Positions 6,578 to 64,000 of a stretch of DNA of 64,000 nt are shown in pieces. The translations under genes and the position numbers were made by a program. Numbering within the stretch: position 1 is the first letter of the stretch; each line of letters begins with the position of its first letter. Source of the DNA: a virus; the UHGV virus genome UHGV-0311442. One strand, given 5' to 3'. The notes beneath the pieces are model-generated. The model saw only the letters and a list, made by a program, of their open reading frames with translations. It was not told where the DNA came from and searched no databases.

Positions 6578-7129
6578 TTAAATGTCGACTTCTAGTTTAC
6601 GGTAATCGATGACGCCTTGAGCAATCATAGCAGCAACATCGTTCCAAGTACGAAAAATGAAGTAAACGGTATCCCCGTTTAAATAGATATTGGATTCTTT
6701 ATCCGGGAAATCATCTTCACTGAGGTAGTAGTAGGGTTTGTCGAATGGGAAGTCACGTTCATCAGAGGAACCAAGTACCGCATAACGATTGCCACAATCA
6801 AACAGAATCTTCCAACCAGACATTTCACTATTAGCGTCAATACGATCGTCGATTTCAACGGTAATAGGAGAATGATCAAGAAAGCTGATTGTAACCTCCC
6901 CGTTATGTTGTCGTTTGAATCGATGAATATCTGTAGGCACAATTTCAGATGCTGCTATAAGGGAATAAAGTTGCGTTACGGTGATCTTTTTGTAAACACT
7001 ATCGCCATCCCACAAACGATCAAATAAGAAATTAGCCAGGAAATTTATATCCTTTAAACGTGAACGGAAAACAGAGCCACGACGAATACCGTAAGCCAGA
7101 TGAGTTAAATATTCAGACGATGGAAACAT
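6578..7129 (-). CDS. hypothetical protein (183 aa)
   Basis: ORF track; AGGAG 8 nt upstream of ATG. Confidence 0.55.
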   Translation of the reverse strand: MFPSSEYLTHLAYGIRRGSVFRSRLKDINFLANFLFDRLWDGDSVYKKITVTQLYSLIAASEIVPTDIHRFKRQHNGEVTISFLDHSPITVEIDDRIDANSEMSGWKILFDCGNRYAVLGSSDERDFPFDKPYYYLSEDDFPDKESNIYLNGDTVYFIFRTWNDVAAMIAQGVIDYRKLEVDI

Positions 7130-7148
7130 TTTAATACTCCTAAGGTGG

Positions 7149-7184
7149 AAAAAAGAATTAACCCTACTCCCGGAGGAGTAGGGG
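7149..7184 (-). terminator. rho-independent terminator
   Basis: hairpin CCCTACTCC-cgga-GGAGTAGGG with T-run on minus strand, just downstream of 7192..8124. Confidence 0.55.
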
Positions 7185-7191
7185 ATTTAAA

Positions 7192-8124
7192 TTACTTTTT
7201 GGTTTGACCCAGGTTTTCAAGAACCAGCTCACGAATGTACTTCTGAGTACGTTTCTTCGGTGGTAAAGCCATAAGGGTGTCAACGATTCCCTGGCCGCCG
7301 ATAACCTTGCTGACGAGTTGTTGAACTTGGAAGAGTTCTGCTTCTTCGTCGCTAATTTCGTTAGCTTGGTCTTTCTGACACAATGCTTCTACCAGGTCAG
7401 CTACGGATATTTCATTTTCGTCACCAGGGAAATCCAGGTTTAACGATTCGAAAACATCACGCTTAACGAGCACAGATTTCAGATCATCGTAGTTTTCACA
7501 AACGGCGACTTCTGTGCCAGGTACCGTTTCTTCTTCGTCTTGATCTTCATTCTCAGCGGAGAGGTAACTTACTTCTGTTGCGTGGAATGTTGCGTCAGCT
7601 TTTCTCAGGACGTAGCTCACATGCGACCAATTGCTCAGGATGAAGTAGACAACACCCCCATTTAATCCGATATTGCCCTGGCGAAGTTCGAGAGCAATTT
7701 CCAGGCGGCGTGAAATCTGCCCCAAGTCAAAGAAAGACTCGTCGCGTGCCGCAACAACTTCGTACTGATTCACCCCTTGTTCTACAACAACGAACCAGTT
7801 ATCCGGGAGAGGATACGGGTTGCGCATGAAAGAAAGTTCGTTCCCTACGCCTGGGTCAACAGTAACGGATGTATGGCGCATTCCCATGGAGAAGTTGAAC
7901 GTATCCCCATTTAGAACCGCAATTGCACCGTCAATCGGAAGAATTTTGGTGGTACGATCAATAGAGAAAATCTCTTTCTGCGCAATTGAAGGCTGATTAC
8001 TGCCTAGGAAATGGTTACGCAGAAAAGCAGCGGTTGGGCCTAAGCTGGCTTGCAGTATATGGTAGTTATAACGACGACGCAGCGTGTTAGCCAGTTCGTA
8101 AATTACTTCAGATGGAAAAGTCAT
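7192..8124 (-). CDS. hypothetical protein (310 aa)
   Basis: ORF track; SD-like sequence upstream. Confidence 0.55.
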   Translation of the reverse strand: MTFPSEVIYELANTLRRRYNYHILQASLGPTAAFLRNHFLGSNQPSIAQKEIFSIDRTTKILPIDGAIAVLNGDTFNFSMGMRHTSVTVDPGVGNELSFMRNPYPLPDNWFVVVEQGVNQYEVVAARDESFFDLGQISRRLEIALELRQGNIGLNGGVVYFILSNWSHVSYVLRKADATFHATEVSYLSAENEDQDEEETVPGTEVAVCENYDDLKSVLVKRDVFESLNLDFPGDENEISVADLVEALCQKDQANEISDEEAELFQVQQLVSKVIGGQGIVDTLMALPPKKRTQKYIRELVLENLGQTKK

Positions 8125-29654: not shown

Positions 29655-29667
29655 GGAGATTTTTTTG

Positions 29668-33849: not shown

Positions 33850-33887
33850 GACAGGCTGCCTGCGGGCAGTTGTGTGTCCGTAGGTAA

Positions 33888-33924
33888 CCCCTCCCTGTAA
33901 TGGGGAGGGGTATCCATTTTATTT
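33888..33924 (+). terminator. rho-independent terminator
   Basis: hairpin CCCCTCCC-tgtaa-TGGGGAGGGG followed by TATCCATTTTATTT. Confidence 0.55.
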
Positions 33925-33943
33925 AAAAGTAGGAGTCTTTACG

Positions 33944-36900: not shown

Positions 36901-39127
36901 CCCAAGTAAACCTTATGACGTTCCTGGATATAGCGGTTATGGCCCGAACAACAACCGTCGAGAAGTTGATGCAACCCTTTACGAACAGTTAAGCTGTATG
37001 GCTGCTTGCATGACTCCAGAGGAGCGTCACGGCCAGTTAAACGGTTGGTATTTGACGAAAGCGGAAACCTTCCCATATCGAAACATCTACGGTAACTTTG
37101 CCCTGTCATCAGAACGGCTGACGTTAGAGGAAGCGGATCGCCAGAAGATGATTAGGATGATTGTCGATGGTGCACCATCTGGTCAGGCAAACGGTTACGC
37201 GAACGAGCGCATCAGCGCAGCACACCAAAGCGGTAACGCGTTGTTTGCGCTCTGGTTGCTAGGCATTAACACTGTTTGTGAGTTCGACTTATTACAAGTC
37301 TCATGCATGAAAATCTTGAGTAACGGACGTCGAGTTCTCGACATCTATTATTTCATGGTGAGTCCGACTAAAGAAAACGGTTATCTACGTTTTAACTCGG
37401 CTACTTTCAAACTCGTTGATTGGTTCTTAGACCTTGATTACGGCTTAAGTTATCAGTCTCTGAGGGAAGAAGCGGGTAATAAAACGCGACGTGTAGGCCA
37501 GCCAATTTTTGCTTCTGCCGACGGTGTAAACTTCGGTCTATGGCTACCTTATACGCTGACAATACGGAATATCGGGGACCTAAATGCTTTGGGTTACGCT
37601 GCGAAGTATACCTTCGACCCTGGGTCGGGTTGGACTCGCGTTCCCGGTAAGTCACAATTGCGTCGGATGGCCCCTGCTCATAATCCCGAAACAGGCTGCT
37701 ACATGGGTGCGGGTAATTGGGACAAGATGGCACTAATTTTCTCTAAAGCAGATCGTGTCTTCTGTTCAGGTAACGCATATACAGCCGAAGAGTTCGTTAA
37801 TGACACCAGATTCACAACTGGGGGACAGGCGGTTATTATCGCTGGTGTGGAAACTGCCGAAGGTTGGATTCTATATTTGACGGAAGAGGTCAGGTTAGAT
37901 TTCGGTAGTAATAGCTATACATTACCGACGTGGTTGGTGGATTTAAGCAATGAATTCCCAGAAAACCATGCTAACCAGACGTTCTATGTTCATGCTGCTC
38001 TTGTAGGTTCGAAAGCTCAATATCAGATCGGTCTGGAAAAGCTGCCGGATACGAGTTCGCGATTATTTGTTGGTACAGTTACAACCGATAAAAAGCGCAT
38101 AGTTGCTATTAACATCGATAAAGTGAAACGGTTAGGCAGGGTTCGTGAATTAGAAGAACACGCTGCTGTTAGAGATCAGCACGACGTTGCAGCGGCGTAC
38201 GATCGAAAAACGGGTCCACTCCAAACCTTGGTTAACCAACCGCTGAAAGCCCCCACGGCATCTGCGGGCAAGGGTGCAGGGTATGCCGATGGTCAGAGAT
38301 GGAATGCGTTGACCGGGATCACAACACGTCCCAAACTGCCGATACAGGAAACCTACGCAGGTTATAAAAGTATCGGTAGAGTAGCGTATGAGAACTGCGC
38401 TGATCAGTTCTGGCAGAAAGCGGTCGCTGCAAACGTTGCAGCGGCTACTGCGTCTGAGAACAGTCAAGCGGCAGCCGCGAACATGAAGTGGTTGGGCGCG
38501 TATACGAAACCGACTACAGGTGCGAATGCATATCTGGCGCTGAGTCTGCGTGTTAAAGTGCCTGGTAATCCCGGCACCGCTAATCGTAGACTAAAAATCA
38601 GGCTTGCGGCTCCGACAGGTATAACCCAAGTTCGTTACGGGTTAAACCAGTCTGGTGGCACGATGACTGAACAGACAGTAACGTTAACTGCTAACAGTTA
38701 TCTGGAAAAAGAACACGCCGGATTTAAGCCAGCCGAAGAAGTCCGTGTACATGCTACGTTTGTCATTCCAAAAAATGAATACGATAGCTACCGTACGAAG
38801 TTCGGTGCTGTTCAGCTGATTGACGTTGAGTCGAACACTGTCATTAAACAGACAGATATCGACACACCGTTTATCGTGTATACCGACACGGAGTTAGCAG
38901 CGCAATCTGGTTTGGTGTATAAAGCGGTTAAGGGTCAGTTCCATCAACTCCCGTCTCAACCTGTCGTCATTGTAACTGATGGACAGACAGGGACTACGCC
39001 ACCGGTGAAAACCTCGTTTGCTGACGGGACATTAACGGTCTACGTGGCAACCACGTACGATGCGGTTAACCCAGCACAAACCCGCGATATCGATAAGCTC
39101 CAGTTCAATCTTATGTTTACATCTTAA
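33944..39127 (+). CDS. tail fibre / receptor-binding protein (1727 aa)
   Basis: shares N-terminal GPFY...DYxLxY module; largest ORF of the operon. Confidence 0.6.
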   Translation: MPREDAAQFNGTLSTATYPNRFNVVIPPEGPFYRIGLKLTVADDTAPNGRRTLIEGLDYYLGYYFKELAEAEQDQIYGGFMLLTATEIEYEILGVARQYRVPQSEIGKFLVRTDLKDPRNVDWSELMAYAPVIQPIDPPANLEEAILRDEVVKALNDIRKKIVQRSTELDAAFTEVTNLIYENGKKVFDEELYQHHLNPNAHQYTTTDVGALPVLGRAVDATKAFGLTIDELATLMGSAGIEQSDVDQLMGEALGTVYGRWGSTNGNELTFKTAGGHIISIRGDKWLITSPQPLVIKADQDNNESGLAVEFSAGLNTLWVHSGTEQDVLAPVYNSVYLVTPEMVNMYLTSVTLLEANAYFKPSDSVKPYGTAKQSNPLTLNANIPTATESVYGVFSITNIATSVALGTAISQKAVTELKDRLDLYVDDDYTVNGKGFVKTGDKMVLTLTKTDFGIDKMDNTMPIAKPVTKALANVLKNKSVKEHTHTTADLDNVPIGSATVDGILQLWDAIDATNDKAVTSRQGWLFAKEIKKVSDKLNTILPAWTVGGAKFGNKNFLPIPALGNYSGFTKNQSYQKGVVGYQQGKVYSLRNASNGVPGTEAIYYGYADINTSNAFENPQQTSVKYHPAGMSKYPGVTLKAILIGGQEAIICLGSDNNRYLVLFNGSMDHSKHTVVCRVTMPNYRDNSPTGSNEIPWNPRPESDDVVLVDDHVYLLRSTVNNAAYAVAAWRLRKADLSTNVALEFERVTLNGEMGQFGDNLCLRIGQKTEESQTGQFFTYYPPEARAKWTIGHNFVHGPECNHACAVRDSVIRVNHVPTVWFAAADGSTINFRQWSTSFTIDTLTGRVTLEGAERFPIKADTTTLTFADGSTVETSRKWGGGQANNRCFATYAKPNGTGMMLSCWQVNDADQMPNVSIKGTQGKEFFDYLRYDNPNNTSGEGTFTWDKGRGSIYTIGLSHPVGIGGSNKVWLSNPRNRYTIEVEVDPSKPYDVPGYSGYGPNNNRREVDATLYEQLSCMAACMTPEERHGQLNGWYLTKAETFPYRNIYGNFALSSERLTLEEADRQKMIRMIVDGAPSGQANGYANERISAAHQSGNALFALWLLGINTVCEFDLLQVSCMKILSNGRRVLDIYYFMVSPTKENGYLRFNSATFKLVDWFLDLDYGLSYQSLREEAGNKTRRVGQPIFASADGVNFGLWLPYTLTIRNIGDLNALGYAAKYTFDPGSGWTRVPGKSQLRRMAPAHNPETGCYMGAGNWDKMALIFSKADRVFCSGNAYTAEEFVNDTRFTTGGQAVIIAGVETAEGWILYLTEEVRLDFGSNSYTLPTWLVDLSNEFPENHANQTFYVHAALVGSKAQYQIGLEKLPDTSSRLFVGTVTTDKKRIVAINIDKVKRLGRVRELEEHAAVRDQHDVAAAYDRKTGPLQTLVNQPLKAPTASAGKGAGYADGQRWNALTGITTRPKLPIQETYAGYKSIGRVAYENCADQFWQKAVAANVAAATASENSQAAAANMKWLGAYTKPTTGANAYLALSLRVKVPGNPGTANRRLKIRLAAPTGITQVRYGLNQSGGTMTEQTVTLTANSYLEKEHAGFKPAEEVRVHATFVIPKNEYDSYRTKFGAVQLIDVESNTVIKQTDIDTPFIVYTDTELAAQSGLVYKAVKGQFHQLPSQPVVIVTDGQTGTTPPVKTSFADGTLTVYVATTYDAVNPAQTRDIDKLQFNLMFTS

Positions 39128-41448: not shown

Positions 41449-41597
41449 CTAAGCCCTCCAGTGGTAGTATGTCTATTACGCAATAACCGAGTTAATCGTA
41501 CGGGTTTACTACTGAGTTTCAAGTTACCGGTAGGCAATGGTGCGGTGGTTTCTATACCCTGAATGTCCGTTTGACCGTGAAATAATTGGAGCAATCA

Positions 41598-42485
41598 ATG
41601 AAGAATGATTTACATTTAGCGTACAAAACAATTTTCAATCATCCACTTCACATTTCTTCCCCTGATTCCGTACGTGCACACTTAGCAGATGAAGTTCGTC
41701 TGTTGACTCAGTTGCCGGGCGAATGGCCTAAAGTGCGCGGACGTTTCTTTACCGATCGTAAAAACTATCGTGTGGAAAATACGTTTAAGATTCGTGATCT
41801 GACGGCAGAAAGTGTAGTGGTCTTTACCGGTGACTCCGAGTTGCGTGGTAAACTGGTTGCGGGTAAATATTTCTTTAGTGACGGGATTTTGAATAACTCC
41901 GTAGATATGGAATTGTTCTTTACCCCATTTGAAGAAATGGGCGCAAAACCAGTTGCCCGTCGTTGGTGGTCGCCGGATTACTTAGGCTCGTTCCCGTATT
42001 TCTTTACCCTGGTAACACCAGAAACGAAGAACTATTTCGATACGGAATCGTATATCGAAATTGAAGGGTACGAAGCGTTAGGGATTAATTGCTTAGCGGA
42101 TTTAATGGCGTATAGCTATAAGTTCGTGTGGGATCGTGAACGTTCCGTGTGGGTTGCCCTGACGGATGAACACGAAATTACAAAACGCATCCGTAAGCCT
42201 TGGATGCAGCATTTGATTCAAACGCGTATTGGCGAGCATCCGTCAACAGAAGCGGATCTGGCAAAACTCGTTAGTTTCTTAATGACGAAAGTCACGTTAA
42301 CTGACGAAGAGAAAGCAGCAGTGTCGGCGGTGTTGGACCGTAACGTAACGTTAGCGGATTTAGAACGTTTAAATGTCCGTTATAAAGACCTTAATCGTAT
42401 TTTGGAAGCGTATAACTCTCCATTCTTGTTAACCCCTGGTGCTAACGTAGACGACGATCCTTTGTTCGCCATTGATTATATTTAA
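41598..42485 (+). CDS. hypothetical protein (295 aa), cassette accessory
   Basis: GGAG RBS before ATG 41598; sits between precursor genes and radical SAM genes. Confidence 0.5.
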   Translation: MKNDLHLAYKTIFNHPLHISSPDSVRAHLADEVRLLTQLPGEWPKVRGRFFTDRKNYRVENTFKIRDLTAESVVVFTGDSELRGKLVAGKYFFSDGILNNSVDMELFFTPFEEMGAKPVARRWWSPDYLGSFPYFFTLVTPETKNYFDTESYIEIEGYEALGINCLADLMAYSYKFVWDRERSVWVALTDEHEITKRIRKPWMQHLIQTRIGEHPSTEADLAKLVSFLMTKVTLTDEEKAAVSAVLDRNVTLADLERLNVRYKDLNRILEAYNSPFLLTPGANVDDDPLFAIDYI

Positions 42486-42506
42486 AAACGACCGGAGTCA
42501 CCTGCA

Positions 42507-43430
42507 ATGACAACCAATGCAGAACCAAGGTTATCGAATCGTTTATACGATAAACCCACCGTATTGTCCGTAGTCGCTACGTCCAAGTGTAACCTGGATT
42601 GTAGCTTCTGCGGTGGAGCCTATTACATGAATCGTGAAGATTCTCCGCGAGAGTTTCAACGTGAGCGAATTTTGGAAGCGCTGGAAGCTAATCCAACCAT
42701 TACCGAAATTCAGTGGACGGGTGGTGAGCCATTACTGGCAACCCGTAAAATTGAGGCGTTTGTTGACGAATTAAAAGTGATTCGTCCAGAACTCAAACAC
42801 CAGTTGTATACCAATGGCTTAAAGATGCGTAAATCGCATCTCCCGTTGCTAAAACAGTTTGACAATGTCTACGTTAGCATCGATGGGTTTAAGTCGTCTG
42901 AGCGCCCGTTTATGCGCTTTATTGACGAAGGCTGTTACGAAGCACTGGAAACGATCTACGAGCTGGATAATGTCCAGACTTGGGGTGTCCTGACACGGGA
43001 CCGTTTAGGGGACAAACGCTGGCACGAAGATATTATTCAGCTGCACAGCGCGATTTACCATTACGGTTTCCGTGCAATGACGTTACTCTTAGATGCGAAA
43101 ATGCCAAAACCTTTATCGCCTGACCACGTCATGAACTTTATTTACGGCTACTATCAGGTTCAGGACAACATTGAACGTCTGAATGTAGTAAATGGACGTG
43201 AATGTGGCTTTACGGTAAGTAAAGTGTTTGAAGAAGGGTGTAACGTTTGCAGCGAAAGTCTTTGGATTAATGCAGACGGTGGTGAGCACCAACTCCAGAA
43301 TGCACCTAACGTTCTGGAATCGGGATGTAACCAACTGGCCTTCTCTATCGGTGTAGAGGCGTACGAATATATTCGTCGCGTAGTGATGGCAGGACGTAAT
43401 AGAGGGGCGGCAAATGAGCCAAGCAAATGA
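42507..43430 (+). CDS. radical SAM enzyme (307 aa)
   Basis: CNLDCSFCGG (CxxxCxxC) and GGEPLL SAM-binding motif; extra C-terminal Cys (CNVCSE...GCNQ). Confidence 0.7.
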   Translation: MTTNAEPRLSNRLYDKPTVLSVVATSKCNLDCSFCGGAYYMNREDSPREFQRERILEALEANPTITEIQWTGGEPLLATRKIEAFVDELKVIRPELKHQLYTNGLKMRKSHLPLLKQFDNVYVSIDGFKSSERPFMRFIDEGCYEALETIYELDNVQTWGVLTRDRLGDKRWHEDIIQLHSAIYHYGFRAMTLLLDAKMPKPLSPDHVMNFIYGYYQVQDNIERLNVVNGRECGFTVSKVFEEGCNVCSESLWINADGGEHQLQNAPNVLESGCNQLAFSIGVEAYEYIRRVVMAGRNRGAANEPSK

Positions 43431-44736
43431 ATTCCCTAAGCAGTTAACGTATCAGATCGTAACCAACCTTTCGTGTAACCTGGACTGCGAATATTGTTAC
43501 GAACGTAAGTACCCGCGTAACAACAAAGCGGCCGACATTGTTGATTTCTTACACGCCTGTTTTGAACGTGATAAAAACGAACCGAATGTTGAAGTTATTA
43601 TCGACATTATCGGCGGTGAACCGTTCATGCAGCCTAAGTTGCTGCTGGCAGCGTTTGAAACCGCAGAGCAGTTGTGTAAAGAACACAACCGTCCGTTTAT
43701 GTTTAGTATCTCCACGAACGGGACCTTGTTAGATCGTCCGTTGAACCGTGAGATTGTAGAACGTTGGAAAGACAAACTTTCGGTTGGGGTTTCGATTGAT
43801 GGCTTGCCTGAGTCCCATGACCGTTATCGTATCTTCACAACAACGCGCCAGGGTTCTTACGAAGCCGCAGTACGTGGCTATAATTACTTAAAAGAGGTTG
43901 GCATTGCAGAACTCGGCGTAAAAGCGACCTTTACGTTAGAAACACTGCCGTTCTATGCTGCAGGGATGAAGTCATTAATTGACATTACTGGCGGTGGGAC
44001 AATTTCTGGGAACGTAACCTTCGAAGACGTTATGCCACGTAGCATGGCGACGTCAATCGCTTTACAGATGATGGATGTGATAGATTATTGGGTTGAGAAA
44101 GGATTACACACCAACCCACGTAATATCTTATCGCACATCATTCCAGAAGGGTTGGATTTCGATACGATTTGGGAACCGAACTGGCGTGACCAGTTACTGT
44201 ATAATGACACCGTACGGTTGAACCCAGAACGTTTACGTCCGTTCTGTGGGACGTTAACGCACATGACGTGCTTAGGATTTGACCGTAAGATCTTTGGCTG
44301 TAACCGCTTTATGTCAACGGTAACGTCGCGTTCTGCGGTGTTTGAGTTGGTAGGTCGGGAATTCGTCAGTCTGGACAACGGTAAATTGTTAGAAGAGATT
44401 CAAACGCAATATACCAACTACCCAGAGACCTGTTTAGGTTGTCCGATGAAACACGCTTGTGGTAGCTGTGCGGCGGCTTCTTACGAGAACGGGGAAGGAA
44501 CGTTAGAAGACCGTAAAGCGTATCACGCTGAACGTCGTCAGTGTGGCTGGACGACAGCGAAACTGATGGTGGCGGAATACTGGAAACAGAAGATGGGTAC
44601 GACGTCAGCAAAAGCGTTCCACGACACGAGCATGTGTTATTGCCCACGCTGTGTTCGTGAACGTGCCCAAAAGGAAAAATTATTAAGAGAAGCCAAAGAT
44701 GAAACCAATTCTGATCAACAATATTACGAAGCGTAG
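43414..44736 (+). CDS. radical SAM enzyme with SPASM-like C-terminal domain (440 aa)
   Basis: CNLDCEYCYE and GGEPF motifs; C-terminal CLGCPMKHACGSC cluster typical of SPASM/twitch auxiliary Fe-S domains; 17-nt overlap with upstream gene. Confidence 0.7.
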   Translation: MSQANEFPKQLTYQIVTNLSCNLDCEYCYERKYPRNNKAADIVDFLHACFERDKNEPNVEVIIDIIGGEPFMQPKLLLAAFETAEQLCKEHNRPFMFSISTNGTLLDRPLNREIVERWKDKLSVGVSIDGLPESHDRYRIFTTTRQGSYEAAVRGYNYLKEVGIAELGVKATFTLETLPFYAAGMKSLIDITGGGTISGNVTFEDVMPRSMATSIALQMMDVIDYWVEKGLHTNPRNILSHIIPEGLDFDTIWEPNWRDQLLYNDTVRLNPERLRPFCGTLTHMTCLGFDRKIFGCNRFMSTVTSRSAVFELVGREFVSLDNGKLLEEIQTQYTNYPETCLGCPMKHACGSCAAASYENGEGTLEDRKAYHAERRQCGWTTAKLMVAEYWKQKMGTTSAKAFHDTSMCYCPRCVRERAQKEKLLREAKDETNSDQQYYEA

Positions 44737-51742: not shown

Positions 51743-51762
51743 AGGGGTGGTTTACCACCCCT
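51743..51762 (-). terminator. possible terminator hairpin
   Basis: GGGGTGG-ttta-CCACCCC after stop of 51780..52892; weak T-run. Confidence 0.35.
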
Positions 51763-55981: not shown

Positions 55982-56356
55982 TTAAACCTCCACCGTAGTT
56001 CGTTCAGTTTCTTTAATAAACTTACTAAGCGATTCATTTAAACGTTTTACTCTTTCACCAAACTTAACTACTGTATCGTAAAGGCATTGTGCTGTACCGT
56101 TAAATAAAATCGGACCGTTTTTTAACTCCAGGGCAGAAACTTGATAGTATTCAGAGTTGAAGATTGCTCCTCCCTCGCGTCCTATTCTAACAACTACGTT
56201 ACGAACTTGTATGTTTTGTAACCCACCGTTTGCTAACGTAATAATCTCTGTATACCAGTCACCCGATTTAACTACCGTTGTGACATTCTTGCCGCAAGCC
56301 CAGGTTTTAAACGAAGTGTCTAGCCAACATCTGAATTTGTATAACAGTAATGACAT
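55982..56356 (-). CDS. hypothetical protein (124 aa), paralog of 55592..55978
   Basis: GGAGGAG RBS; see above. Confidence 0.55.
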   Translation of the reverse strand: MSLLLYKFRCWLDTSFKTWACGKNVTTVVKSGDWYTEIITLANGGLQNIQVRNVVVRIGREGGAIFNSEYYQVSALELKNGPILFNGTAQCLYDTVVKFGERVKRLNESLSKFIKETERTTVEV

Positions 56357-56398
56357 ATCGTTACTCCTCCCTCTCAGGATTTCCTGAGAGGGGTTATA

Positions 56399-57688: not shown

Positions 57689-58536
57689 AATTGCCCTTCC
57701 TTCTTAATGTAATCTTCAACCAACTTATCAAACACGATTTTTATCTTCTCGCGTTCTTCTTCGCCCAATTCACCGGAACAGGTTAGTCCGTTTATCTTTC
57801 CGTACCGTAATTCCAACACATACTTCAACCGATGACGTAAGGCTTGTTCAAAATGCGTTGGAATATAAATTGGTTCGAAGTTGTGCAATAAAATAAAATC
57901 GTCTTCGGTGTGTTTAGGAGGTTCGAATTTTACTCTATCTAAGATAGTAAGCCAGCGTTGTCTGTCGACTAGCCGATCGTCCCAATAAACAGGTTTTGTC
58001 TTAGAGGGGGTAAGTGTATTGTAGTCACTGGAATCGGAGATACGGAAATTTGCTGTGACGTAAGTCTTCGAGAGTAACGAGAGAAGACAAATCGTGCCTT
58101 CTTTAGGGTAGCTTAAAAGCTCTCCGAGTACGTCTTTAGCTTTCTTGAAGTAGTCTCTAATATAGTCTTCAGCAATTGGTTGAATTTCTACTTCCATACA
58201 GCTAATTTGGGGCCCGTCTATCCGTAAAGGAATTTTTAGTTCAGCAATATACTGCCTATCAGATGTATAAGCTCGCGTAATAATAGGGTACGTAACAGGC
58301 TTGGCCAAATGACGATATTCATCATTTCTAATGACTGAGTAACGTCCAAACCCGCCTTTATTCGATTTTGAAAAAGCGTAAAGGTCTTTTAGATACTCTA
58401 GATACTGGTCATCGGTCATTTCGTCGGTATTAAATTCACGAATGTAAAGTCGTTCAACAAATCCCTTTGTTTGTTCGTAGTAATAACTGGGGTCCCTATT
58501 TGCTAGAATGTGCGGGAGATAATACGGGTGTGACAT
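57685..58536 (-). CDS. hypothetical protein (283 aa)
   Basis: AAAGGAGGA RBS; first gene after promoter-like motif. Confidence 0.55.
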   Translation of the reverse strand: MSHPYYLPHILANRDPSYYYEQTKGFVERLYIREFNTDEMTDDQYLEYLKDLYAFSKSNKGGFGRYSVIRNDEYRHLAKPVTYPIITRAYTSDRQYIAELKIPLRIDGPQISCMEVEIQPIAEDYIRDYFKKAKDVLGELLSYPKEGTICLLSLLSKTYVTANFRISDSSDYNTLTPSKTKPVYWDDRLVDRQRWLTILDRVKFEPPKHTEDDFILLHNFEPIYIPTHFEQALRHRLKYVLELRYGKINGLTCSGELGEEEREKIKIVFDKLVEDYIKKEGQL

Positions 58537-58584
58537 CTAATCCTCCTTTCGGCTATAACTAATGGAGTGAACGTAAATTTCACT

Positions 58585-58616
58585 CTCCCCTAGGTAATAT
58601 ATATCTGAGAAAAAAT
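58585..58616 (-). promoter_or_regulatory. conserved promoter-like motif, copy 4
   Basis: minus-strand reading TTCTCAGATATATATTACCTAGGGGAGAG then hairpin GAGTGAA...TTCACTC and RBS. Confidence 0.45.
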
Positions 58617-58653
58617 ATAAAAACCGTAGGATGGACTTAGTCCATCCTACGGT
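58617..58653 (-). terminator. rho-independent terminator
   Basis: hairpin CCGTAGGATGGAC-tta-GTCCATCCTACGG flanked by A/T runs. Confidence 0.6.
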
Positions 58654-58658
58654 TTAAA

Positions 58659-60785
58659 TTAAATAACTACCCAGCTTTTACCATCGGAGCCAACTTGCAT
58701 TAGCGTAATACTTTCAGTGGTCTCAATGGGTTTGGCAAGACCTTCCGTCCCACCCTTTGGAGTGATGAGAACGTTCGAATTTTGCGGTTTAACGGTGATC
58801 GAACCAGCCTTATTTGCCACGATCTGTATATTTCTACCCACGCTATATTCTAGATCAGGAATAGTAAGTTGGCCGCCACGGTTGGTGGCTGGGAAATACA
58901 CATAAGACGATACATCTTCCTCAGATAACACTATACTACCAGAATCACGATTGACCGAGATCTCAAACTTAGAAATATCGATATCGTAGGCAGTAACTTT
59001 CGTAATATCTGTCAGAACCAATTCGTTCAAATTGGTCTTAGCTGTACTGTTCGCCAGATCAAATGGAGTGCCATTCTTGCCGTCAAGCACAGGCGTGACT
59101 TTGATTTTATTGTCACCCGGATAAATGATTTCAAACGTATGCCAGTTATTATCGTACGCACCAAAAGTTCCTAATTGCACATTCTGCTTTTTATGATGCA
59201 TCAGATAAAGATTCGTACCGTCGGTCTGTAAGAAAAAAGACATTAAGTACGGGTTCGTATCAGCCACACCAGCGTCAGCAAGTGTAGTACCAGAAGGTAG
59301 GTCGGACGCGGAAATACGCCAATAAAGTCCTAATCCGAAACGATCTGCTGCTAAATCACCTTTTAGTCTAAAAGTAACGGTCAGACGTCCACCGTAACGT
59401 ATCATGTCCGCAGCAGATGTCATTGACTTAGTTACATTCCAAGGTTTCATCGTTACAGCCTTTCTTAATTCGACGAAATGCCCGTTTCCATCCTCAGAAT
59501 CTTGCACGGTTACGTTACAATCAACGATATTGTTCCAACCCTGCCCTTTCAGGGAACCATCTCCACGACGTCCGTTATAACCCACAGACTCTACTAATGG
59601 GGTATAGCTTCTTACCACATTCATATTGTCTTTGAGCTCTTTAGTGTCGTTCTTCGTCAGGAGCATTGCACCATTCGCTGTTCTTGATAATATCTCAGCA
59701 GCTATTCTCTCTGAGATAATACCGCGTCGTGCCCAAGAACTGAAATGGCTATTCCTTGTTTCAGACGTCCAGTTTTTATTACTACGGGTGGCAGCACCGT
59801 AGTAGGCAGCACCAGCGATATCAGGATCGTCAGTGGGATCATTAGTCGGTACACGTTGGCCATTATCGTCGTACATGAATGGAACAAAAAAGATATTTTT
59901 TTGTTCATTGTTACGATAATTACCGTATATGGTTTCATATTGAACAGGATATTTTTCCTTCCAATAGTAGGTAGTGTCCCCGCAGATCCATGGTACTTCG
60001 GCGGTGTCGTACTCGGGCATCTGAGAGAGATGGTCAGAGAGATCAGTTCGGAAACGCTCTACCATTGCCATAAATAACGCTGGTTGTTGTGCGTAACCTA
60101 CTTTAGTCAGATCATACTCCCCCTGCATCCACACTACAGCCAAGAGTTTATTTTTAGGATTAACGTCCAGAGCTTTTTTGGTCCGGCTAACTAAATCTTT
60201 ATAAAGAGGTTTTTCCACCCCCCATACCGATGACGTCGCAGAGGCTCCTGTGGCTTCATCGAAGGTACCTTCTGCACCACCCGTGAAAGCAGAACCGCCG
60301 CGTGCGCAGGGTACTAGTAAGATACCAGCGTTGCTAGGAATATACGGGAGAAGACGCTTCGCGATGTGTAGACCTTGACCCACACATCCGTATTCACCTT
60401 TGTCCAAATTGGCTTTGGGGTGCGAGAATACGGACATATCTTGCACGTCGTGCAGACAGTGATCCGCTGGAATGACGTCGTTATACTTACAATCAGCACC
60501 ATTAGGCGTTACCTTCGCACGGCGCGCCATTTGTTTAATCCGCGGATCGGGAGCGTCCAACGTCGCTGGTAAAGGCAATCCTTCACCATAACTCATCGCA
60601 TTAGATTGCCCGGCTATAGGGATCACGAAGTAATAATCCGGTTCCGTCACCCCCCCCCCTTGAAGTTCTGCAATATCAATTTTATATTCTTTTTCTTCCT
60701 TAGAAAGGAGAACTACCGCACCTTTGAGATCGCCAGAGAAATTGTCGAGTTCATGGATACGTTTCTTTCCAATTGGTTGAACCAT
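58659..60785 (-). CDS. tail-associated SASA/SGNH-type carbohydrate O-acetylesterase with C-terminal beta-rich domain (708 aa)
   Basis: N-terminal FVIPIAGQSNAMSYGEG (GQSN motif); GGAGGT RBS before ATG 60785; adjacent to fibre genes. Confidence 0.6.
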   Translation of the reverse strand: MVQPIGKKRIHELDNFSGDLKGAVVLLSKEEKEYKIDIAELQGGGVTEPDYYFVIPIAGQSNAMSYGEGLPLPATLDAPDPRIKQMARRAKVTPNGADCKYNDVIPADHCLHDVQDMSVFSHPKANLDKGEYGCVGQGLHIAKRLLPYIPSNAGILLVPCARGGSAFTGGAEGTFDEATGASATSSVWGVEKPLYKDLVSRTKKALDVNPKNKLLAVVWMQGEYDLTKVGYAQQPALFMAMVERFRTDLSDHLSQMPEYDTAEVPWICGDTTYYWKEKYPVQYETIYGNYRNNEQKNIFFVPFMYDDNGQRVPTNDPTDDPDIAGAAYYGAATRSNKNWTSETRNSHFSSWARRGIISERIAAEILSRTANGAMLLTKNDTKELKDNMNVVRSYTPLVESVGYNGRRGDGSLKGQGWNNIVDCNVTVQDSEDGNGHFVELRKAVTMKPWNVTKSMTSAADMIRYGGRLTVTFRLKGDLAADRFGLGLYWRISASDLPSGTTLADAGVADTNPYLMSFFLQTDGTNLYLMHHKKQNVQLGTFGAYDNNWHTFEIIYPGDNKIKVTPVLDGKNGTPFDLANSTAKTNLNELVLTDITKVTAYDIDISKFEISVNRDSGSIVLSEEDVSSYVYFPATNRGGQLTIPDLEYSVGRNIQIVANKAGSITVKPQNSNVLITPKGGTEGLAKPIETTESITLMQVGSDGKSWVVI
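60650..60659 (-). repeat. G10 homopolymer tract inside the esterase coding sequence (codons for GGGV)
   Basis: ten consecutive C on plus strand; in frame as given. Confidence 0.85.
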
Positions 60786-61106
60786 TGTAACCTCCAATTT
60801 TTAAACCAATACTCTTCCGGTTAGCGCGACATGCCGTTCTGTGATAAGGCAGTACTAACGATAAGTTTAACCGGGGTTTGTTCTTCCGTAATAGGGATTT
60901 CATCGAGATTGTTGATATCAATAGTAACATCATGGACTTTAGGCATTGTTACCAAGATAGTCAACATTACCACCGATGCTTTTGTGGAAGTATCCGCAAC
61001 GTAATATTTAACGTCCAGTAATTCGTTACTTTCAGATAAGTAGAGTATTTGCGGATAGATTGTTATCAATGTAAAAAAAATACCAACGCCATTTAAGTTT
61101 TAGCCA

Positions 61107-61622
61107 TTAATGATCTCCGAAGGTTAATGCACAATTATCTGCGGTAACGATTAAATCGTCGTCTTTTGTTACTGCGGCTTCTTCACTGTTACCGAAAACC
61201 AGAACAGAGAATTGACCTTTATAACCTAATGAATTAGGTGATACCTGTAACGTTACCGCGTCTTTTCCTACAGTGAAAGAATCATCTGTTAGATCTTCAG
61301 CTTGTAAGTTACTGCCACAAGCTGCGTTAATCGCTTCGATTAAATCGTGTGTGGTAAACCCTTCCCCGGCTACTTTTACCAGAATAGGTTGCTGGTTTAA
61401 CCACCGCTCTGCGGTTAAACGGTTGTAATAGATCTGCAACGTTCTGTTTCCAGGACGCTTAATCTTTACAACGGCAGTGGTATCACGATTCATTTCTTCA
61501 GTAGGATTTACGTTGCTGAACTCAACCTCGTTTTCTTGCAGATCGAGCTGAAGGTCGTAGTTGATCAGCGATATAACCATGTTAGTTGAAGTTAATGATA
61601 AATCTGGTGTGAATTGCCCCAT
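61107..61622 (-). CDS. five-member paralog family protein (171 aa)
   Basis: start re-set to ATG 61622 with GGAGGT RBS; LINYDL...HDLIEAINAACG pattern. Confidence 0.5.
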   Translation of the reverse strand: MGQFTPDLSLTSTNMVISLINYDLQLDLQENEVEFSNVNPTEEMNRDTTAVVKIKRPGNRTLQIYYNRLTAERWLNQQPILVKVAGEGFTTHDLIEAINAACGSNLQAEDLTDDSFTVGKDAVTLQVSPNSLGYKGQFSVLVFGNSEEAAVTKDDDLIVTADNCALTFGDH

Positions 61623-61720
61623 AAAGTTTACCTCCAACGGTTAGGGGAGTCATAAAATGTTGGCTAAAACATTTCACCCCTCCCCCGATTATGTTTTCAG
61701 GCACTATGACTTGAAAATAA

Positions 61721-62224
61721 TTAACTAATTCTCAAATCACGTAGTGCGCCTGTTGACTTCATCACGTTTTGGAACGCAGCGCTGATGTTATTAGTCCAGT
61801 AGTAATGCTGTCCGTTAATAACCTGCTGATAGGCCAGCGCGCAGGTGTTGCCACCTAAATTTACGGTAATGTTAGAGGCTCTGCCTCCTTGTAAGTAAAC
61901 CGCTAAAGTAGGCTTTGCGTTGGTAAATATCGTCGTTAGCATTAACTCGATACCTATTAAAGTCCCCACCCCGCAGTTACCCGCGTTTTGAATGGTCCCC
62001 TGATTTTTCTGGTTTAACGGCCAGCTTGGTCCTACTGCGCCCCATTTATTACCTAAAGAATCGCTATATGCAGCGGTTGCAATTTTACAGCCCATAGATC
62101 GTCCCACCATTTGACTCATCATAAAAGGTCTACCCAATCCTAATTTACTACCCGCAGCGCTCATCCATTGTTGGCCAGTTTCATTCTTAGCTGAAGATCC
62201 GTCCCATCCTGACGCTACCCCCAT
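61721..62224 (-). CDS. Gly-rich putative tail fibre accessory protein (167 aa)
   Basis: AAGGAGGG RBS; N-terminal GWDGSSAKNETGQQWMSAAG shared with 62241..63032. Confidence 0.5.
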   Translation of the reverse strand: MGVASGWDGSSAKNETGQQWMSAAGSKLGLGRPFMMSQMVGRSMGCKIATAAYSDSLGNKWGAVGPSWPLNQKNQGTIQNAGNCGVGTLIGIELMLTTIFTNAKPTLAVYLQGGRASNITVNLGGNTCALAYQQVINGQHYYWTNNISAAFQNVMKSTGALRDLRIS

Positions 62225-62240
62225 CTACCCTCCTTTTTAA

Positions 62241-63032
62241 TTAAACACGTGAACCGTATATTGCACCTACTGCGTCCCATCTTGGCGCATTACCAGTAAC
62301 AGCTGCACCAGCTGCTCCGCCGTTATATTCTGTACCGTTACCTTGAGTATTACATCTTCCTCCACCAGCACCGACATTACCACCCGAACCGCCTGTATAT
62401 GCACTAAGAGACCCCTCACCAACAGATCCTCTACCAGGAGCGGAAATAGTACCAGCAGCCGCACCGGAACTCATATGAGAGGAAGACCCACCAGCACCGA
62501 ATGGGCGACCACCGCCACCACCAAATATTAGTCTACCCCTGTTACCGCCGCCACCGCCGCCACCGCCTCCGGCAATAGCGCCACGGTTGGTTATACGCAG
62601 TCTGTTTCCTATTCCGTTCTGTACTGCGGTTCCACCTGCACCGCCTGGCGAGTTAGAACCACCGTTGCCTCCTCTGCCGTATACTGTAACCCCAGGATTG
62701 ATGATGAGTGTAATATACGAATTTGGAAGATTGCTAGGGAATTCTAAACAAGGAACCCCGCTACTATAAGACACTAAATCCCCTGTAATGGTCACAACGA
62801 CAGCAGTAGAGCCTAAAGAACGTAAATAGTTAATAAGCGTATCTTTATTGTAATTGTGATTAGCTCCGATCGAATACTGAACCTCTTTTGATTTTCCCGC
62901 CAATTGCGACATCCAGCCTGGAACCGGCACACCGAGTGTGCGCATCGCGCCAGACATCCAACCATTACCAGCTTCAGCTTTTGCTGAAGAACCAATCCAT
63001 CCGGGAGTCGCTGATACAGACAAAATAACCAC
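62241..63032 (-). CDS. Gly-rich protein with poly-Gly tracts (263 aa), start uncertain
   Basis: GGGGGGGGGNRG tract; N-terminal GWIGSSAKAEAGNGWMSGA; GTG start without clear RBS, preceded by a perfect hairpin. Confidence 0.45.
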   Translation of the reverse strand: MVILSVSATPGWIGSSAKAEAGNGWMSGAMRTLGVPVPGWMSQLAGKSKEVQYSIGANHNYNKDTLINYLRSLGSTAVVVTITGDLVSYSSGVPCLEFPSNLPNSYITLIINPGVTVYGRGGNGGSNSPGGAGGTAVQNGIGNRLRITNRGAIAGGGGGGGGGNRGRLIFGGGGGRPFGAGGSSSHMSSGAAAGTISAPGRGSVGEGSLSAYTGGSGGNVGAGGGRCNTQGNGTEYNGGAAGAAVTGNAPRWDAVGAIYGSRV

Positions 63033-63078
63033 CTTATAACGTACTTGTGAGTCAGTGAGGGGAACCCCTCACTGATAA

Positions 63079-64000
63079 TTATAACTTGTTCTCGATTATC
63101 TCCGCCAACTCCTTTATTGCCTCAATAAGTAGAGCTATTTGGGCAGAGTTAGAGACCGTTAAAACGTCCTCACCATTAGCGTCTTTATAAGTAGAAACTG
63201 CTTCAGGTAACACTTTTTGTAAGGTCTGTGCTACAACGCCAGCCTCACGATGAACATTAGTGGATTTAAAGTTCTCCTTTTTGTCGTATATTAAACCTGA
63301 CAATTCCTTTACCTTCTCCAATGCATTAGTTATTGGAGAGAAATTACTTTTCAGCCGGGCGTCAGATCGTATATAAACGTCGTTAAAGTTACCGTTCCCA
63401 CCACAAACCCAAGTACCGTCGTTTTGCAAATAAGCATTGGCATCGGTGCCATTATCAGTACGTGAGTTGTTTATCATGTAAAAGCCGAATTGATAGTTAC
63501 CTAAACCACCAACAAAAAATTTCCTATCAGCATGGTCTTGTCTTAACAATGCCTGAGCAGAACTGGTTCCTACCGGATTAAGACCAAAAATAACGTTATG
63601 GTCTCTCATGCTAATCCAAGAACCTGAGTTGCTGTTAATAGAATATCTATTTGCATAAACCCAAGTATTGGTTCTTATATCTCCGGTAACGTTGAGAGGT
63701 TTATTGCTTTGAACAGCCCCACTCGTAAAGCGTAAAACATGAGCATTATTGGCGTAAACATCTAGAACGCCATCCCCGTTCTGCTTAAAGCCGGTGTCAT
63801 TATCCCCTAAAACTATGGAGTTCCCACCTAAAGCATTGGCGGTTCCAATACCCAATGCTCCATTCAATTGACCGCCAGATAATGGCAACGCCCCAACGTC
63901 GGCAGCAGTTGGCTTGTTTCTCGTATTGTACACGCGACGCCAACCTGGTGAGTAAGTATCGCCGTTAAATACGTAGATAAACTCCGCATTAGTGAGTGCG
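63079..64000 (-). CDS. tail fibre protein C-terminal portion with S74-type intramolecular chaperone domain (5' part beyond window)
   Basis: PTAADVGALPLSGGQLNG fibre motif; SDARLK autoprocessing motif followed by coiled coil; ORF runs off window end. Confidence 0.65.
   Translation of the reverse strand, partial: ALTNAEFIYVFNGDTYSPGWRRVYNTRNKPTAADVGALPLSGGQLNGALGIGTANALGGNSIVLGDNDTGFKQNGDGVLDVYANNAHVLRFTSGAVQSNKPLNVTGDIRTNTWVYANRYSINSNSGSWISMRDHNVIFGLNPVGTSSAQALLRQDHADRKFFVGGLGNYQFGFYMINNSRTDNGTDANAYLQNDGTWVCGGNGNFNDVYIRSDARLKSNFSPITNALEKVKELSGLIYDKKENFKSTNVHREAGVVAQTLQKVLPEAVSTYKDANGEDVLTVSNSAQIALLIEAIKELAEIIENKL

Follow-up and report, generated by a model that had tools for sequence, protein, structure and literature searches.

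The closest described counterparts of this locus are the gp38 adhesins of phages T2, T6 and S16 (PDB 6F45; Pfam PF05268 and PF21721), the genes of which follow that of a fibre with a self-cleaving chaperone domain. The gp37 tips pair with the gp38 N-termini in a lock-and-key manner, and the T4 protein also named gp38 is unrelated to these T2/S16-type adhesins (Trojet et al., PMC3157838). Dependence on OmpA has been described for PaulHMueller/Bas45 (PMC8594841) and FL18 (PMC12032242), and one loop substitution, Q206L in RB68, has been reported to switch the receptor (bioRxiv 10.64898/2026.04.02.716166). Small adhesins with a Gp38_N domain are grouped in PHROG 1121, which is found in Stx2 phages (P13374, phi191, 75/02 Stx), SSU5-like phage-plasmids, Kanagawavirus and Edwardsiella PEi20; these proteins are annotated there as "tail fiber adhesin / receptor recognizing protein Gp38". 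As for the sequences between genes, Tuerk et al. are said to have described, in 1988, stable C(UUCG)G-type stem-loops in T-even phages.

The window, that is, the whole 64,000-nt stretch of DNA analysed here, belongs to a ~225-kb Goslar/SPN3US-like jumbo phage, outside the Straboviridae. Two adjoining minus-strand ORFs, 62241..63032 (ORF A, as numbered from an upstream GTG) and 61721..62224 (ORF B), lie directly 3' of a fibre gene ending in an S74 intramolecular chaperone domain (Table 1). This fibre-adhesin order is the canonical g37-g38 layout, with a gap of 55 nt between the fibre gene and ORF A (TTG start, see below) and of 16 nt between the ORF A stop and ORF B. A first, sequence-only reading had proposed fibre tip or assembly components, and the family matches together with the post-fibre position indeed identify both products as predicted gp38-type tail-fibre tip adhesins, each from a known family. 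The region is probably the receptor-recognition end of a minus-strand long tail-fibre operon. Goslar has a Caudo_TAP gene after its fibre, whereas the fibre of the window is followed by gp38-type adhesins instead; no Pfam or PHROG match to Caudo_TAP, Tfa or T4-gp38-type chaperone families was obtained for ORF A or ORF B. The novelty is modest and lies in the finding of a gp38 cassette in such a jumbo phage and in its tandem of two alternative adhesins; literature searches returned no description of tandem or dual gp38 adhesins, or of gp38 in jumbo phages. Further RBP-like genes with a common N-terminal anchor motif are carried by this phage, for example the SASA esterase at 58659-60797. An Rfam search of 60500-64000 gave a sub-threshold mir-15 match alone, on an imperfect palindrome past the ORF B stop, which was discarded as chance (21.9 bits for a cut-off of 57.3).

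Table 1. Features of the fibre-adhesin region and their coordinates in the window
Feature	Position	Strand	Basis or remark
Long tail-fibre gene, 3' part	63079..64000	-	Frame open to window end; PHROG tail-fibre families
Exchanged distal cassette (fibre tip, S74, hairpin, SD, first 7 ORF A codons)	63003..63900	-	Homology breaks
Peptidase_S74 intramolecular chaperone domain	63082..63366	-	Pfam PF13884, 1.4e-15
Perfect 11-bp GC-rich stem-loop	63052..63075	-	3 nt past fibre stop, 16 nt before ORF A SD
ORF A Shine-Dalgarno (SD), AAGGTGG	63029..63035	-	Anti-SD duplex -8.5 kcal/mol
ORF A, 260 aa from TTG 63023	62241-63023	-	Pfam GP38, PHROG 2056 and PDB matches
ORF B Shine-Dalgarno, AAGGAGGG	62227..62234	-	Anti-SD duplex -12.1 kcal/mol; within gap after ORF A stop
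ORF B, 167 aa, ATG 62224	61721..62224	-	Gp38_N and PHROG 1121

The fibre gene runs past the window end, and its full-length homologues in the relatives L001, L003, L010 and L026 count 1493-1541 residues. Its 3' part encodes a mosaic distal shaft, homologous to Mu S, P1 S and P2 H, then the tip and the C-terminal chaperone domain; matches in the PDB include the Mu tail fibre protein S (5YVQ, 8e-37) and S16 gp37 (6F45_A, 3.8e-11). A predicted self-cleavage motif, S-D-A-R-L-K (63349-63366), opens the S74 domain, and this SDxRxK motif and the tip align to S16 gp37 ("SSDRRIKKD"). From what is known of S74 domains, self-cleavage is predicted at the Ser of ...IRS/DARLK, and the mature tip would then end in ...GNGNFNDVYIRS (...NDVYIRS). 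The tip motif GNGxFNDVxIRS is common to fibres with A-type and with B-type adhesins.

By its family matches, ORF A is assigned as a classical tail-fibre adhesin of the T2/S16 gp38 type. Pfam GP38 (PF05268) covers it over 1-218/218 (5.8e-69), PHROG 2056 matches at 4.5e-91, the S16 gp38 crystal chain 6F45_D is matched over residues 8-258 (7e-50), the alignment spanning 6F45_D residues 6-247, and PDB 9V85 is matched at 2.2e-38; at the DNA level, 80-90% identity is seen with gp38 of RB49, JSE, PaulHMueller and FL18. The Gp38_N docking domain (about 62900-63002) is followed by a beta-helix, then by glycine-rich motifs alternating with variable loops, the latter specificity domain and the beta-helix being recognized by sequence match to PF05268 and 6F45_D. 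The poly-Gly runs previously noticed in this larger protein are present, with a nine-Gly run GGGGGGGGG at 62544-62570; they coincide in the alignment with the Gly-rich motifs of Bas45, FL18 and JSE, and they are recognizable as the glycine-rich motifs of the gp38 family. The variable loops of ORF A (HVS2-4 in the family nomenclature; e.g., SSSHMSSGAAAGTISAPGRGSVGEGSLSAYT, RCNTQGNGTEYN) have near-identical counterparts in PaulHMueller/Bas45 and FL18. Since these phages depend on OmpA, OmpA is the predicted receptor of ORF A, although the single substitution reported to switch the receptor in RB68 argues against a firm call.

Both proteins had been described as beginning with the same motif, GW-x-GSSAK-x-E-x-G-xx-WMS, which is found at 62952-63002 in ORF A and at 62159-62209 in ORF B. 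Over this common stretch, 21/38 residues are identical (E=1e-8), which makes the N-domains 55% identical, and no other part aligns. Pfam Gp38_N (PF21721) matches both proteins above its 25-bit cut-off (9.9e-12 for ORF A, 1e-18 for ORF B), and the shared N-terminus would thus be a fibre-docking domain of ~40 residues. Their joint description as Gly-rich suits ORF A (25% Gly) and is a stretch for ORF B (13.8%). In ORF B, the docking domain (62224 to about 62072) precedes a beta-rich C-terminal domain of ~120-125 aa. PHROG 1121 aligns to residues 1-160 over profile positions 1-173 of 181 (6.7e-44), ORF B is about 60% identical to Stx-phage and CMS-2020a proteins, and its homologues in Stx phages are annotated as adhesins. 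It was filed under PHROG 1121 rather than with the T2-type gp38 proteins because PF05268 gives no match, because it does not align to ORF A past residue 43, and because its AF2 model shows a small beta domain unlike the T2-type specificity domain; Foldseek matches it to small adhesins of Proteus phages. No PDB sequence is matched by ORF B at E up to 1, and its C-domain has no solved structural relative, the small PHROG 1121 class being itself devoid of a solved structure or known receptor. The exact ORF B sequence had no match in the assembly collection; its C-domain allele is common only to the closest jumbo relatives.

Comparison with these relatives reveals sharp recombination edges at conserved motifs. 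Homology between the window and L026 is seen at 64000-63890 and at 63002-62072 and is lost between, and homology with L001 and L010 is seen from 63900 on; the left edge of the exchanged cassette falls in KPTAADVGALP and its right edge at the GW motif. Close relatives also differ by a cassette exchange of the ORF B C-domain, with a breakpoint precisely at the Gp38_N boundary. The A+B tandem is kept in five loci (the window, L001, L003, L010 and L026), with a 48-aa deletion in ORF A of L003, and L002 has no ORF A. In L002 and in the phage-plasmid CP054387, the fibre gene is followed by an ORF B-type gene alone; CP053388, the sibling of this plasmid, carries an A-type gp38 at the same locus.

The perfect 11-bp hairpin reported upstream of ORF A, TCAGTGAGGGG-aa-CCCCTCACTGA, was recovered 1-2 nt from its first placement, and it does not immediately precede the start, as had been stated, since it ends well ahead of the SD without overlap. 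Its stem is seen in both the MFE and the centroid structures, the centroid consisting of the hairpin alone, at about -18 kcal/mol; stems of at least 11 bp arose in 4/20 shuffles of the whole 64 kb. Its conservation is partial: L001 has kept it and L010/L042 have kept it with loop GAA for TT, whereas L003, L026 and L002 are hairpin-less, with overlapping stop and start codons. SSU5-like phage-plasmids have a hairpin at the same position with three compensatory pair changes (TGAATGGTGAGGG/CCCTCACCATTCA for TCAGTGAGGGG/CCCCTCACTGA) and L056 has an unrelated stem at the equivalent position (GGAGAGGC/GCCTCTCC), a comparison of few distinct sequences in which L056 is unalignable inside the stem. Equivalent hairpins also occur in Stx phages and in the T-evens Bas45, FL18 and L062. 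Fibre-adhesin hairpins are a common intercistronic feature in unrelated phages, and perfect hairpins in general are routine punctuation in this genome, since the window has 20 of them and 14 lie between genes. The present one probably travels with the fibre-tip cassette. A role in SD sequestration was ruled out, given the 16-nt gap and a stem in which no SD base takes part; the MFE does contain a weak second helix that touches the SD, but the centroid lacks it. Cleavage by RNase III was also dismissed, 11 bp being too short for such a site.

The start of ORF A and the role of this hairpin had been tied together. A GTG without SD (63032-63030) had been held to be the only plausible start, dependent on the hairpin or on coupling to fibre-gene termination. 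It is indeed the first in-frame start codon past the upstream stop, and the hairpin is real and non-random. However, its pairing with the 16S 3' end is next to none (-0.3 kcal/mol), its distance of 46 nt from the fibre stop is more than classical coupling allows, and it is itself part of AAGGTGG, the SD of an in-frame TTG (63023-63021) located three codons, or 9 nt, downstream and 5 nt 3' of that SD. The duplex for TTG, at -8.5 kcal/mol, may be set beside a mean of -5.8 kcal/mol for a crude reference set of 28 large ORFs, each taken at its first start codon. TTG is a rare start codon. Homologues nevertheless begin with ATG or GTG at the equivalent codon, 7 residues ahead of GW, in codon-for-codon agreement with the GTG of L056/L044 and the ATG of L026 and Bas45. 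In L056, which has a homologous GGTTATT-GTG, this GTG is the first standard start codon (ATG, GTG or TTG) past the upstream in-frame stop. In the PHROG 2056 match, profile position 3 corresponds to residue 6 counted from the GTG, which places position 1 on the TTG codon. The hairpin-less relatives encode the same protein from their overlapping stop/start. Initiation at the GTG is thus very improbable, and the claim of a coupled or structure-dependent mechanism is not supported: no exotic initiation is needed, as the SD-less GTG, a trap for annotation, belongs to the ribosome-binding site of the TTG, from which ORF A is likely to be translated conventionally. The N-terminal peptides implied are (M)SVSATPGWIGSSAK from TTG and MVILSVSATPGW ((M)VILSVSATPGW) from GTG. 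A sequencing frameshift hiding an upstream ATG was ruled out by the identical junction in three independent contigs (L001, L010/L042 and the window). Another possibility is that the hairpin acts as a genuine terminator of the fibre transcript, the adhesin genes having their own promoter. The GC-rich and stable stem just past the stop codon would fit, most other intergenic hairpins of the window look like terminators, and a U5 run follows the equivalent hairpin in T-even relatives. No U-tract is present beside the stem on either strand, however (3' sequence CTCACAAGTACG / CTCACAAGTACGTTA), unlike the other terminators of the window, and termination there would therefore be weak at best. A terminator consensus scan did not call this hairpin, the other hairpins of the window having T-runs; the 16 nt that precede the SD contain no promoter-like site, and a consensus scan, which does not cover phiKZ-like promoters, gave no more promoter-like sites than shuffles. 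This reading seems unlikely. The hairpin would most likely be an mRNA 3'-end/decay barrier or a weak transcription attenuator, setting fibre output above adhesin output.

The explanation that we consider probable as a whole combines these elements. The fibre protein would trimerise with the aid of its S74 domain, which would then cut itself off, and the exposed tip would carry as its cap a single adhesin monomer, the product of a separate gene, docked via Gp38_N. In ORF A, the poly-Gly runs would be the motifs that build the polyglycine-II sandwich core in S16 gp38, and the variable loops between them would contact an outer-membrane protein, predicted to be OmpA. ORF B would present a different small beta-rich recognition domain on the same docking domain and would most likely compete for the same fibre tips, conferring a second receptor specificity. 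Each adhesin would be translated from its own start behind its own SD (TTG 63023 and ATG 62224). The hairpin would play no part in initiation and, in what is the least certain step, would keep the fibre above the adhesin, three fibre chains being needed per adhesin.

Two other views of ORF B have to be considered. It could be a fibre assembly factor or chaperone, with ORF A alone recognizing the host: several database records name its homologues "assembly catalyst" or "tail fiber assembly protein", and a legacy annotation reads "distal long tail fiber assembly catalyst". This name is inherited from the unrelated T4 gp38 (PMC3157838), and ORF B has Gp38_N without Caudo_TAP or any other chaperone domain, behind a fibre that already has its own S74 chaperone domain. 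Cassette exchange of its C-domain between close relatives is what a specificity determinant would show, and genes of the ORF B type can be the only ones after the fibre, as in L002 and CP054387. An assembly role looks quite improbable, somewhat more so than the possibility that the two adhesins serve separate fibres, ORF B capping another fibre or spike, or one being used and the other a recently acquired passenger. The further RBP-like genes of the phage would be compatible with such a division, as would the variation among relatives (ORF A absent from L002, shortened in L003). ORF B may also prefer another partner, given that its N-domain is just 55% identical to that of ORF A and that pairing is lock-and-key (PMC3157838). 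On the other hand, Pfam gave no other S74 match in the two ORFs scanned at 58000-61720, 3' of ORF B, the rest of the genome lying beyond the window; the tandem is maintained in five loci, and both genes are intact with strong SDs (-8.5 and -12.1 kcal/mol). Separate fibres are therefore unlikely, and two adhesins docking on the same fibre remain the preferred explanation. A more speculative extension, to which we give somewhat less than even chances, is that the jumbo phage captured a tip, S74 and gp38 cassette and that its two unrelated adhesins compete for the same tips, so that each virion would carry OmpA-type and second-receptor tips in a random mixture. This would be a host-range bet-hedging at the level of assembly, without DNA switch and possibly tuned by the hairpin.

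These findings do not overturn the current understanding. They extend the range of a portable gp38 system, whose tip and adhesin cassette is found in T-evens, SSU5-like phage-plasmids, Stx prophages and now a jumbo phage. The loop identity provides a testable prediction, OmpA, for the receptor of a jumbo phage that is either uncultured or poorly known, and the tandem second adhesin offers a natural template for engineering dual-specificity fibres. Like the gp38 of T2, T6 and S16, ORF A matches the family over its full length and follows a fibre with a self-cleaving chaperone, and its loops are near-identical to those of Bas45, FL18 and FL20, whose adhesins bind OmpA. The locus differs from the T2/S16 systems by its jumbo-phage genome, its TTG start and the second, different adhesin gene downstream. 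ORF B has the two-domain layout and length of the PHROG 1121 adhesins, but it follows a full-length gp38 and not the fibre gene itself; a tandem is also seen in Klebsiella phage KLB31, made there of two small Gp38_N adhesin genes. In Bas45, FL18 and L062, as in the window, a GC-rich stem-loop separates the fibre stop from the adhesin SD. The stem in the window is longer (11 bp), with a GUUC/UU loop instead of UUCG, and it stands 16 nt from the SD without U run, whereas the T-even hairpins abut the SD and are followed by a U run. Lastly, two alternative specificity modules for one fibre scaffold evoke, as a functional analogy, the invertible G segment of Mu and C segment of P1 (S/S', U/U'). The window contains neither invertible segment nor recombinase; its adhesin genes are co-oriented and presumably co-expressed, and any mixing would take place at assembly rather than through a DNA switch.

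ORF A and ORF B are adjacent on the minus strand, which carries every gene in this part of the window. As the sequence-only reading had noted, both contain the motif GW-x-GSSAK-x-E-x-G-xx-WMS, ORF A has a long glycine run, and a perfect hairpin lies upstream; these observations hold, and the start codon of ORF A is a separate matter. The two proteins are similar over a stretch of about 38 residues only, with 21/38 identities (E=1e-8), no further alignment being found between their remaining parts. The glycine content is 25% in ORF A and 13.8% in ORF B.

Features of the fibre-adhesin locus and corresponding elements in relatives
Feature	Position	Strand	Remark
Distal part of long tail fibre	63079 to beyond 64000	minus	upstream of ORF A
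Hairpin TCAGTGAGGGG-aa-CCCCTCACTGA, perfect stem	63052-63075	minus	3 nt past fibre stop, 16 nt ahead of SD
Shine-Dalgarno (SD) AAGGTGG of ORF A	63035-63029	minus	
GTG of the sequence-only reading	63032-63030	minus	final part of SD AAGGTGG
In-frame TTG	63023-63021	minus	5 nt past SD AAGGTGG
ORF A	62241..63032	minus	263 aa counted from first start codon
GW motif in ORF A	62952-63002	minus	
Gly9 run of ORF A	62544-62570	minus	
ORF B	61721..62224	minus	167 aa
GW motif in ORF B	62159-62209	minus	
N-terminus MAVVGVGGW			L026 (ATG), L003 (GTG)
N-terminus MPIVGVPGW			CMS-2020a (GTG)
N-terminus MAIVGVPGW			PaulHMueller (ATG)
Fibre-adhesin stem-loop			SSU5-like phage-plasmids, TGAATGGTGAGGG-gcca-CCCTCACCATTCA
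Fibre-adhesin stem-loop			L056, GGAGAGGC-taaa-GCCTCTCC
Fibre-adhesin stem-loop			Stx phages, GTGGGGTGA-cac-TCACCCCAC
Fibre-adhesin stem-loop			T-even Bas45, AGAGGG-cttcgt-CCCTCT
Fibre-adhesin stem-loop			T-even FL18, GAGGGGC-ttca-GCCCCTC
Fibre-adhesin stem-loop			T-even L062, AGGGCC-ttcg-GGCCCT

ORF A is a predicted tail-fibre adhesin of the T2/S16 gp38 type. It matches Pfam GP38 over its whole length (5.8e-69), as well as Gp38_N, PHROG 2056 'tail fiber protein; host specificity' (4.5e-91), the S16 gp38 crystal-structure chain 6F45_D (7e-50, residues 8-258) and PP01 gp38 (9V85, 2.2e-38). Gp38 is made of an N-terminal attachment domain, which binds the gp37 tip, a beta-helix and a polyglycine-II sandwich formed by five motifs rich in glycine; the four hypervariable loops that extend from these motifs touch the receptor (PMC3157838; PMC12032242). 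Since such motifs build the sandwich, the poly-Gly runs of ORF A are the structural hallmark of this family and no oddity. Its DNA is 80-90% identical to gp38 of Krischvirus (RB49, JSE), Mosigvirus (FL18) and Tequatrovirus (PaulHMueller). OmpA is the predicted receptor, because the loop segments of the protein are near-identical to those of PaulHMueller/Bas45 and FL18, which both require OmpA (PMC8594841; PMC12032242). A single loop substitution has been reported to switch the gp38 receptor (bioRxiv 10.64898/2026.04.02.716166). In the gp38 orthologue of L003, a relative of about 225 kb (5340-5978), an in-frame deletion of 48 residues between two Gly-rich motifs leaves 212 aa versus 260, consistent with recombination between GGY-codon repeats.

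The fibre encoded upstream ends in a Peptidase_S74 intramolecular chaperone domain (Pfam), and matches the Mu S fibre 5YVQ (8e-37) and S16 gp37 6F45_A (3.8e-11). S74 domains use a Ser/Lys dyad and are cleaved at the Ser; the fibre motif IRS-DARLK lines up with SS-DRRIK of S16. The chaperone domain would self-cleave, leaving a fibre tip that ends ...GNGNFNDVYIRS. The fibre and ORF A form the canonical T2-type g37-g38 arrangement.

In ORF B, Pfam detects Gp38_N (1e-18) and no GP38 specificity domain, and PHROG 1121 'tail fiber adhesin' is matched at 6.7e-44. Homologues about 60% identical are found in the Stx2 phages P13374, phi191 and 75/02 Stx, where they are annotated as tail-fibre adhesins, and in an SSU5-like phage-plasmid; remoter ones occur in Kanagawavirus, Edwardsiella PEi20 and others. 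AlphaFold2 models residues ~50-167 confidently (pLDDT 80-94) as a small beta-rich domain, and the docking domain with low confidence, as would be expected if this segment folds on its partner. Homologues P0002 and P0004 come from Salmonella enterica assemblies, where one of them lies on a contig of 224,826 bp. This points to jumbo phages of this kind being assembled along with Salmonella isolates or persisting in them, and gives a hint of the host.

Mosaic edges were mapped by local BLAST of the window against its relatives. Homology to the relative L026 is seen at 64000-63890 and 63002-62072 with none between; a cassette of about 890 bp has been swapped as one unit. From the KPTAADVGALP motif at one edge to the GW motif at the other, it comprises the fibre tip and S74 domain, then hairpin and SD, and the seven initial codons of ORF A. 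It shares about 70-74% identity with its counterparts in CMS-2020a and L056, both SSU5-like phage-plasmids. The second breakpoint, 62072, is the exact end of the ORF B docking domain. Beyond it, one allele of the C-domain is found in the window, L001, L002 and L003, and another in L010, L026, CP054387 and Stx phages. The order A then B is observed in the window, L001, L003, L010 and L026; L002 has B only, directly behind the fibre, and sibling phage-plasmids (CP053388, CP054387) carry either A or B at a shared fibre-adhesin-holin-endolysin locus. The tip motif GNGxFNDVxIRS is common to fibres with either adhesin class. ORF B is thus read as a putative adhesin, the second one for tips of this kind, and not as a chaperone, mainly because this pattern of alleles and gene content is typical of specificity determinants. 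The earlier suggestion of fibre tip components fits well with a gp38-type adhesin and a small Gp38_N-type adhesin, both predicted, 3' of a fibre ending in a self-cleaving chaperone domain.

The sequence-only reading had taken a GTG without SD as the sole plausible start of ORF A, and had proposed a structure-dependent initiation. The mRNA-strand junction, TAA-tta-(hairpin)-CTCACAAGTACGTTAT-AAGGTGG-TTATT-TTG-TCT-GTA..., leads to another view. The predicted duplex with the 16S rRNA 3' end reaches -8.5 kcal/mol for the TTG versus -0.3 kcal/mol for the GTG, the mean being -5.8 over a crude set of large ORFs (n=28, first start codon used). Initiation at the TTG yields MSVSATPGW..., in which seven residues precede the GW motif, a length identical in every homologue compared. 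The most telling relative is L056, where the fibre has the same type of C-terminus. Its junction ...GAGAGGGTTATT-GTG-TCA-ATT... matches ...AAGGTGGTTATT-TTG-TCT-GTA... of the window column for column, and no further ATG/GTG/TTG is found between the upstream in-frame stop and this GTG. Position 3 of the PHROG 2056 profile corresponds to residue 6 of GTG-numbered ORF A, so that position 1 projects onto the TTG codon. A sequencing error masking an ATG is unlikely, because the junction is the same in three independent assemblies (window, L001, L010/L042). Taken together, these data indicate that ORF A translation is ordinary, the TTG codon being its sole mildly unusual feature; the GTG claim does not stand, and structure-dependent initiation is unsupported, the translation signals being conventional.

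The hairpin itself is not a chance feature, since just 4 of 20 shuffles of the complete 64-kb sequence contain a perfect stem of at least 11 bp, and this one falls within a 55-nt intergenic gap. RNA folding keeps it in both MFE and centroid structures; its stem leaves the SD bases unpaired, and a weak second MFE helix touching the SD is missing from the centroid. Hairpins are routine punctuation of this genome: 14 of the 20 perfect stems of at least 9 bp are intergenic, with non-coding sequence making up only 9% of the window. A stem-loop between fibre stop and adhesin SD also occurs in unrelated phages, the intercistronic type being common. Compared with the SSU5-like stem, three base pairs are changed on both sides with pairing preserved, and L010 differs only in the loop. 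The hairpin is absent from relatives that have the other type of cassette, in which fibre stop and adhesin start overlap. Because of these paired changes and the recurrent position, set against the hairpin-less relatives, the stem is under selection, yet dispensable for adhesin expression. It is possible that the hairpin is a terminator, with the adhesin genes under a separate promoter; T-runs follow most other intergenic hairpins of the window, this one has no U-tract on either strand, and a terminator scan makes no call. As a best guess, it protects an mRNA 3' end or acts as a barrier to decay, or is a weak attenuator, and may help fibre output exceed adhesin output, each adhesin monomer serving a fibre of three chains.

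Immediately behind the stop codon of ORF B, a long imperfect palindrome (GGGGGAGGGGTGAAATGTTTTAGCCAACATTTTATGACTCCCC, 61650-61720, minus) is possibly the operon terminator or a further intercistronic hairpin; its Rfam mir-15 match is sub-threshold and surely spurious. Two further intergenic hairpins without T-runs lie at 56369-56392 and 51743-51762 (both minus). The former directly adjoins an AGGAG SD and the ATG of ORF 55982-56356, and is identical in layout (hairpin, SD, start) to T-even g37-g38 junctions. Directly 3' of ORF B lies a DUF7941 'virion structural protein' gene (61107-61637, minus). The TTG given as its start lacks an SD (+0.7 kcal/mol); ATG 61622 stands behind GGAGG (-10.6 kcal/mol) and agrees with the relatives' starts MGQF.../MEQF.... 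Its homologue in L001 forms the C-terminal end of a protein of 644 aa. Farther on, a protein of 712 aa that carries DUF6645 besides its SASA/SGNH esterase domain (58659-60797, minus) begins ...KKRIHELDNFSGDLKGAVVLLSKEEKEYK, closely like the N-terminus KKIRLHDLRPYTGDIGEGVLLFSKDEKDYK of the relatives' long fibre (L001 148-4770). A 206-aa L003 protein (7115-7735) has a similar N-terminus, which looks like a virion-anchor motif common to several receptor-binding proteins; because of this shared motif, the esterase is probably a second receptor-binding protein.

The window as a whole belongs to a jumbo phage of about 225 kb, Goslar/SPN3US-like, with IMG/VR contigs of about 221-225 kb as close relatives. 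The radical-SAM cluster at 41586-44736 (plus) shows about 72% DNA identity to Seoulvirus (Salmonella SPFM/SPN3US-like) and Proteus phage 7, its genes being 72% identical to those of the SPFM phages; among the matches listed for 40000-64000, it is the longest DNA match to isolated phages. Outside these listed matches, three phage records are at least 99% identical to some, presumably short, piece of that stretch. At 25332-39127 (plus), three virion proteins of giant size are encoded one after the other, 1440, 1394 and 1727 aa long; their PHROGs, 7557, 8078 and 7449, cross-match, and such a paralogous trio is typical of SPN3US/phiKZ-like jumbo phages. The window has other genes of this kind as well.

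The ORF A/ORF B system is real but ordinary in kind. What is modestly new is the presence of gp38-type adhesins in a Goslar/SPN3US-like jumbo phage of about 225 kb, the tandem pairing of adhesins that differ in class but share one docking domain, and the concrete prediction of OmpA as the receptor of ORF A. In the searchable literature, no account was found of a PHROG-1121 adhesin behind a full gp38, or of any jumbo phage with gp38; small gp38-like genes as a tandem pair are already present in Klebsiella phage KLB31. The nearest fibre from an isolate is that of jumbo phage Goslar (52% aa), in which the fibre is followed by a Caudo_TAP assembly protein, whereas gp38 takes this place in the window.
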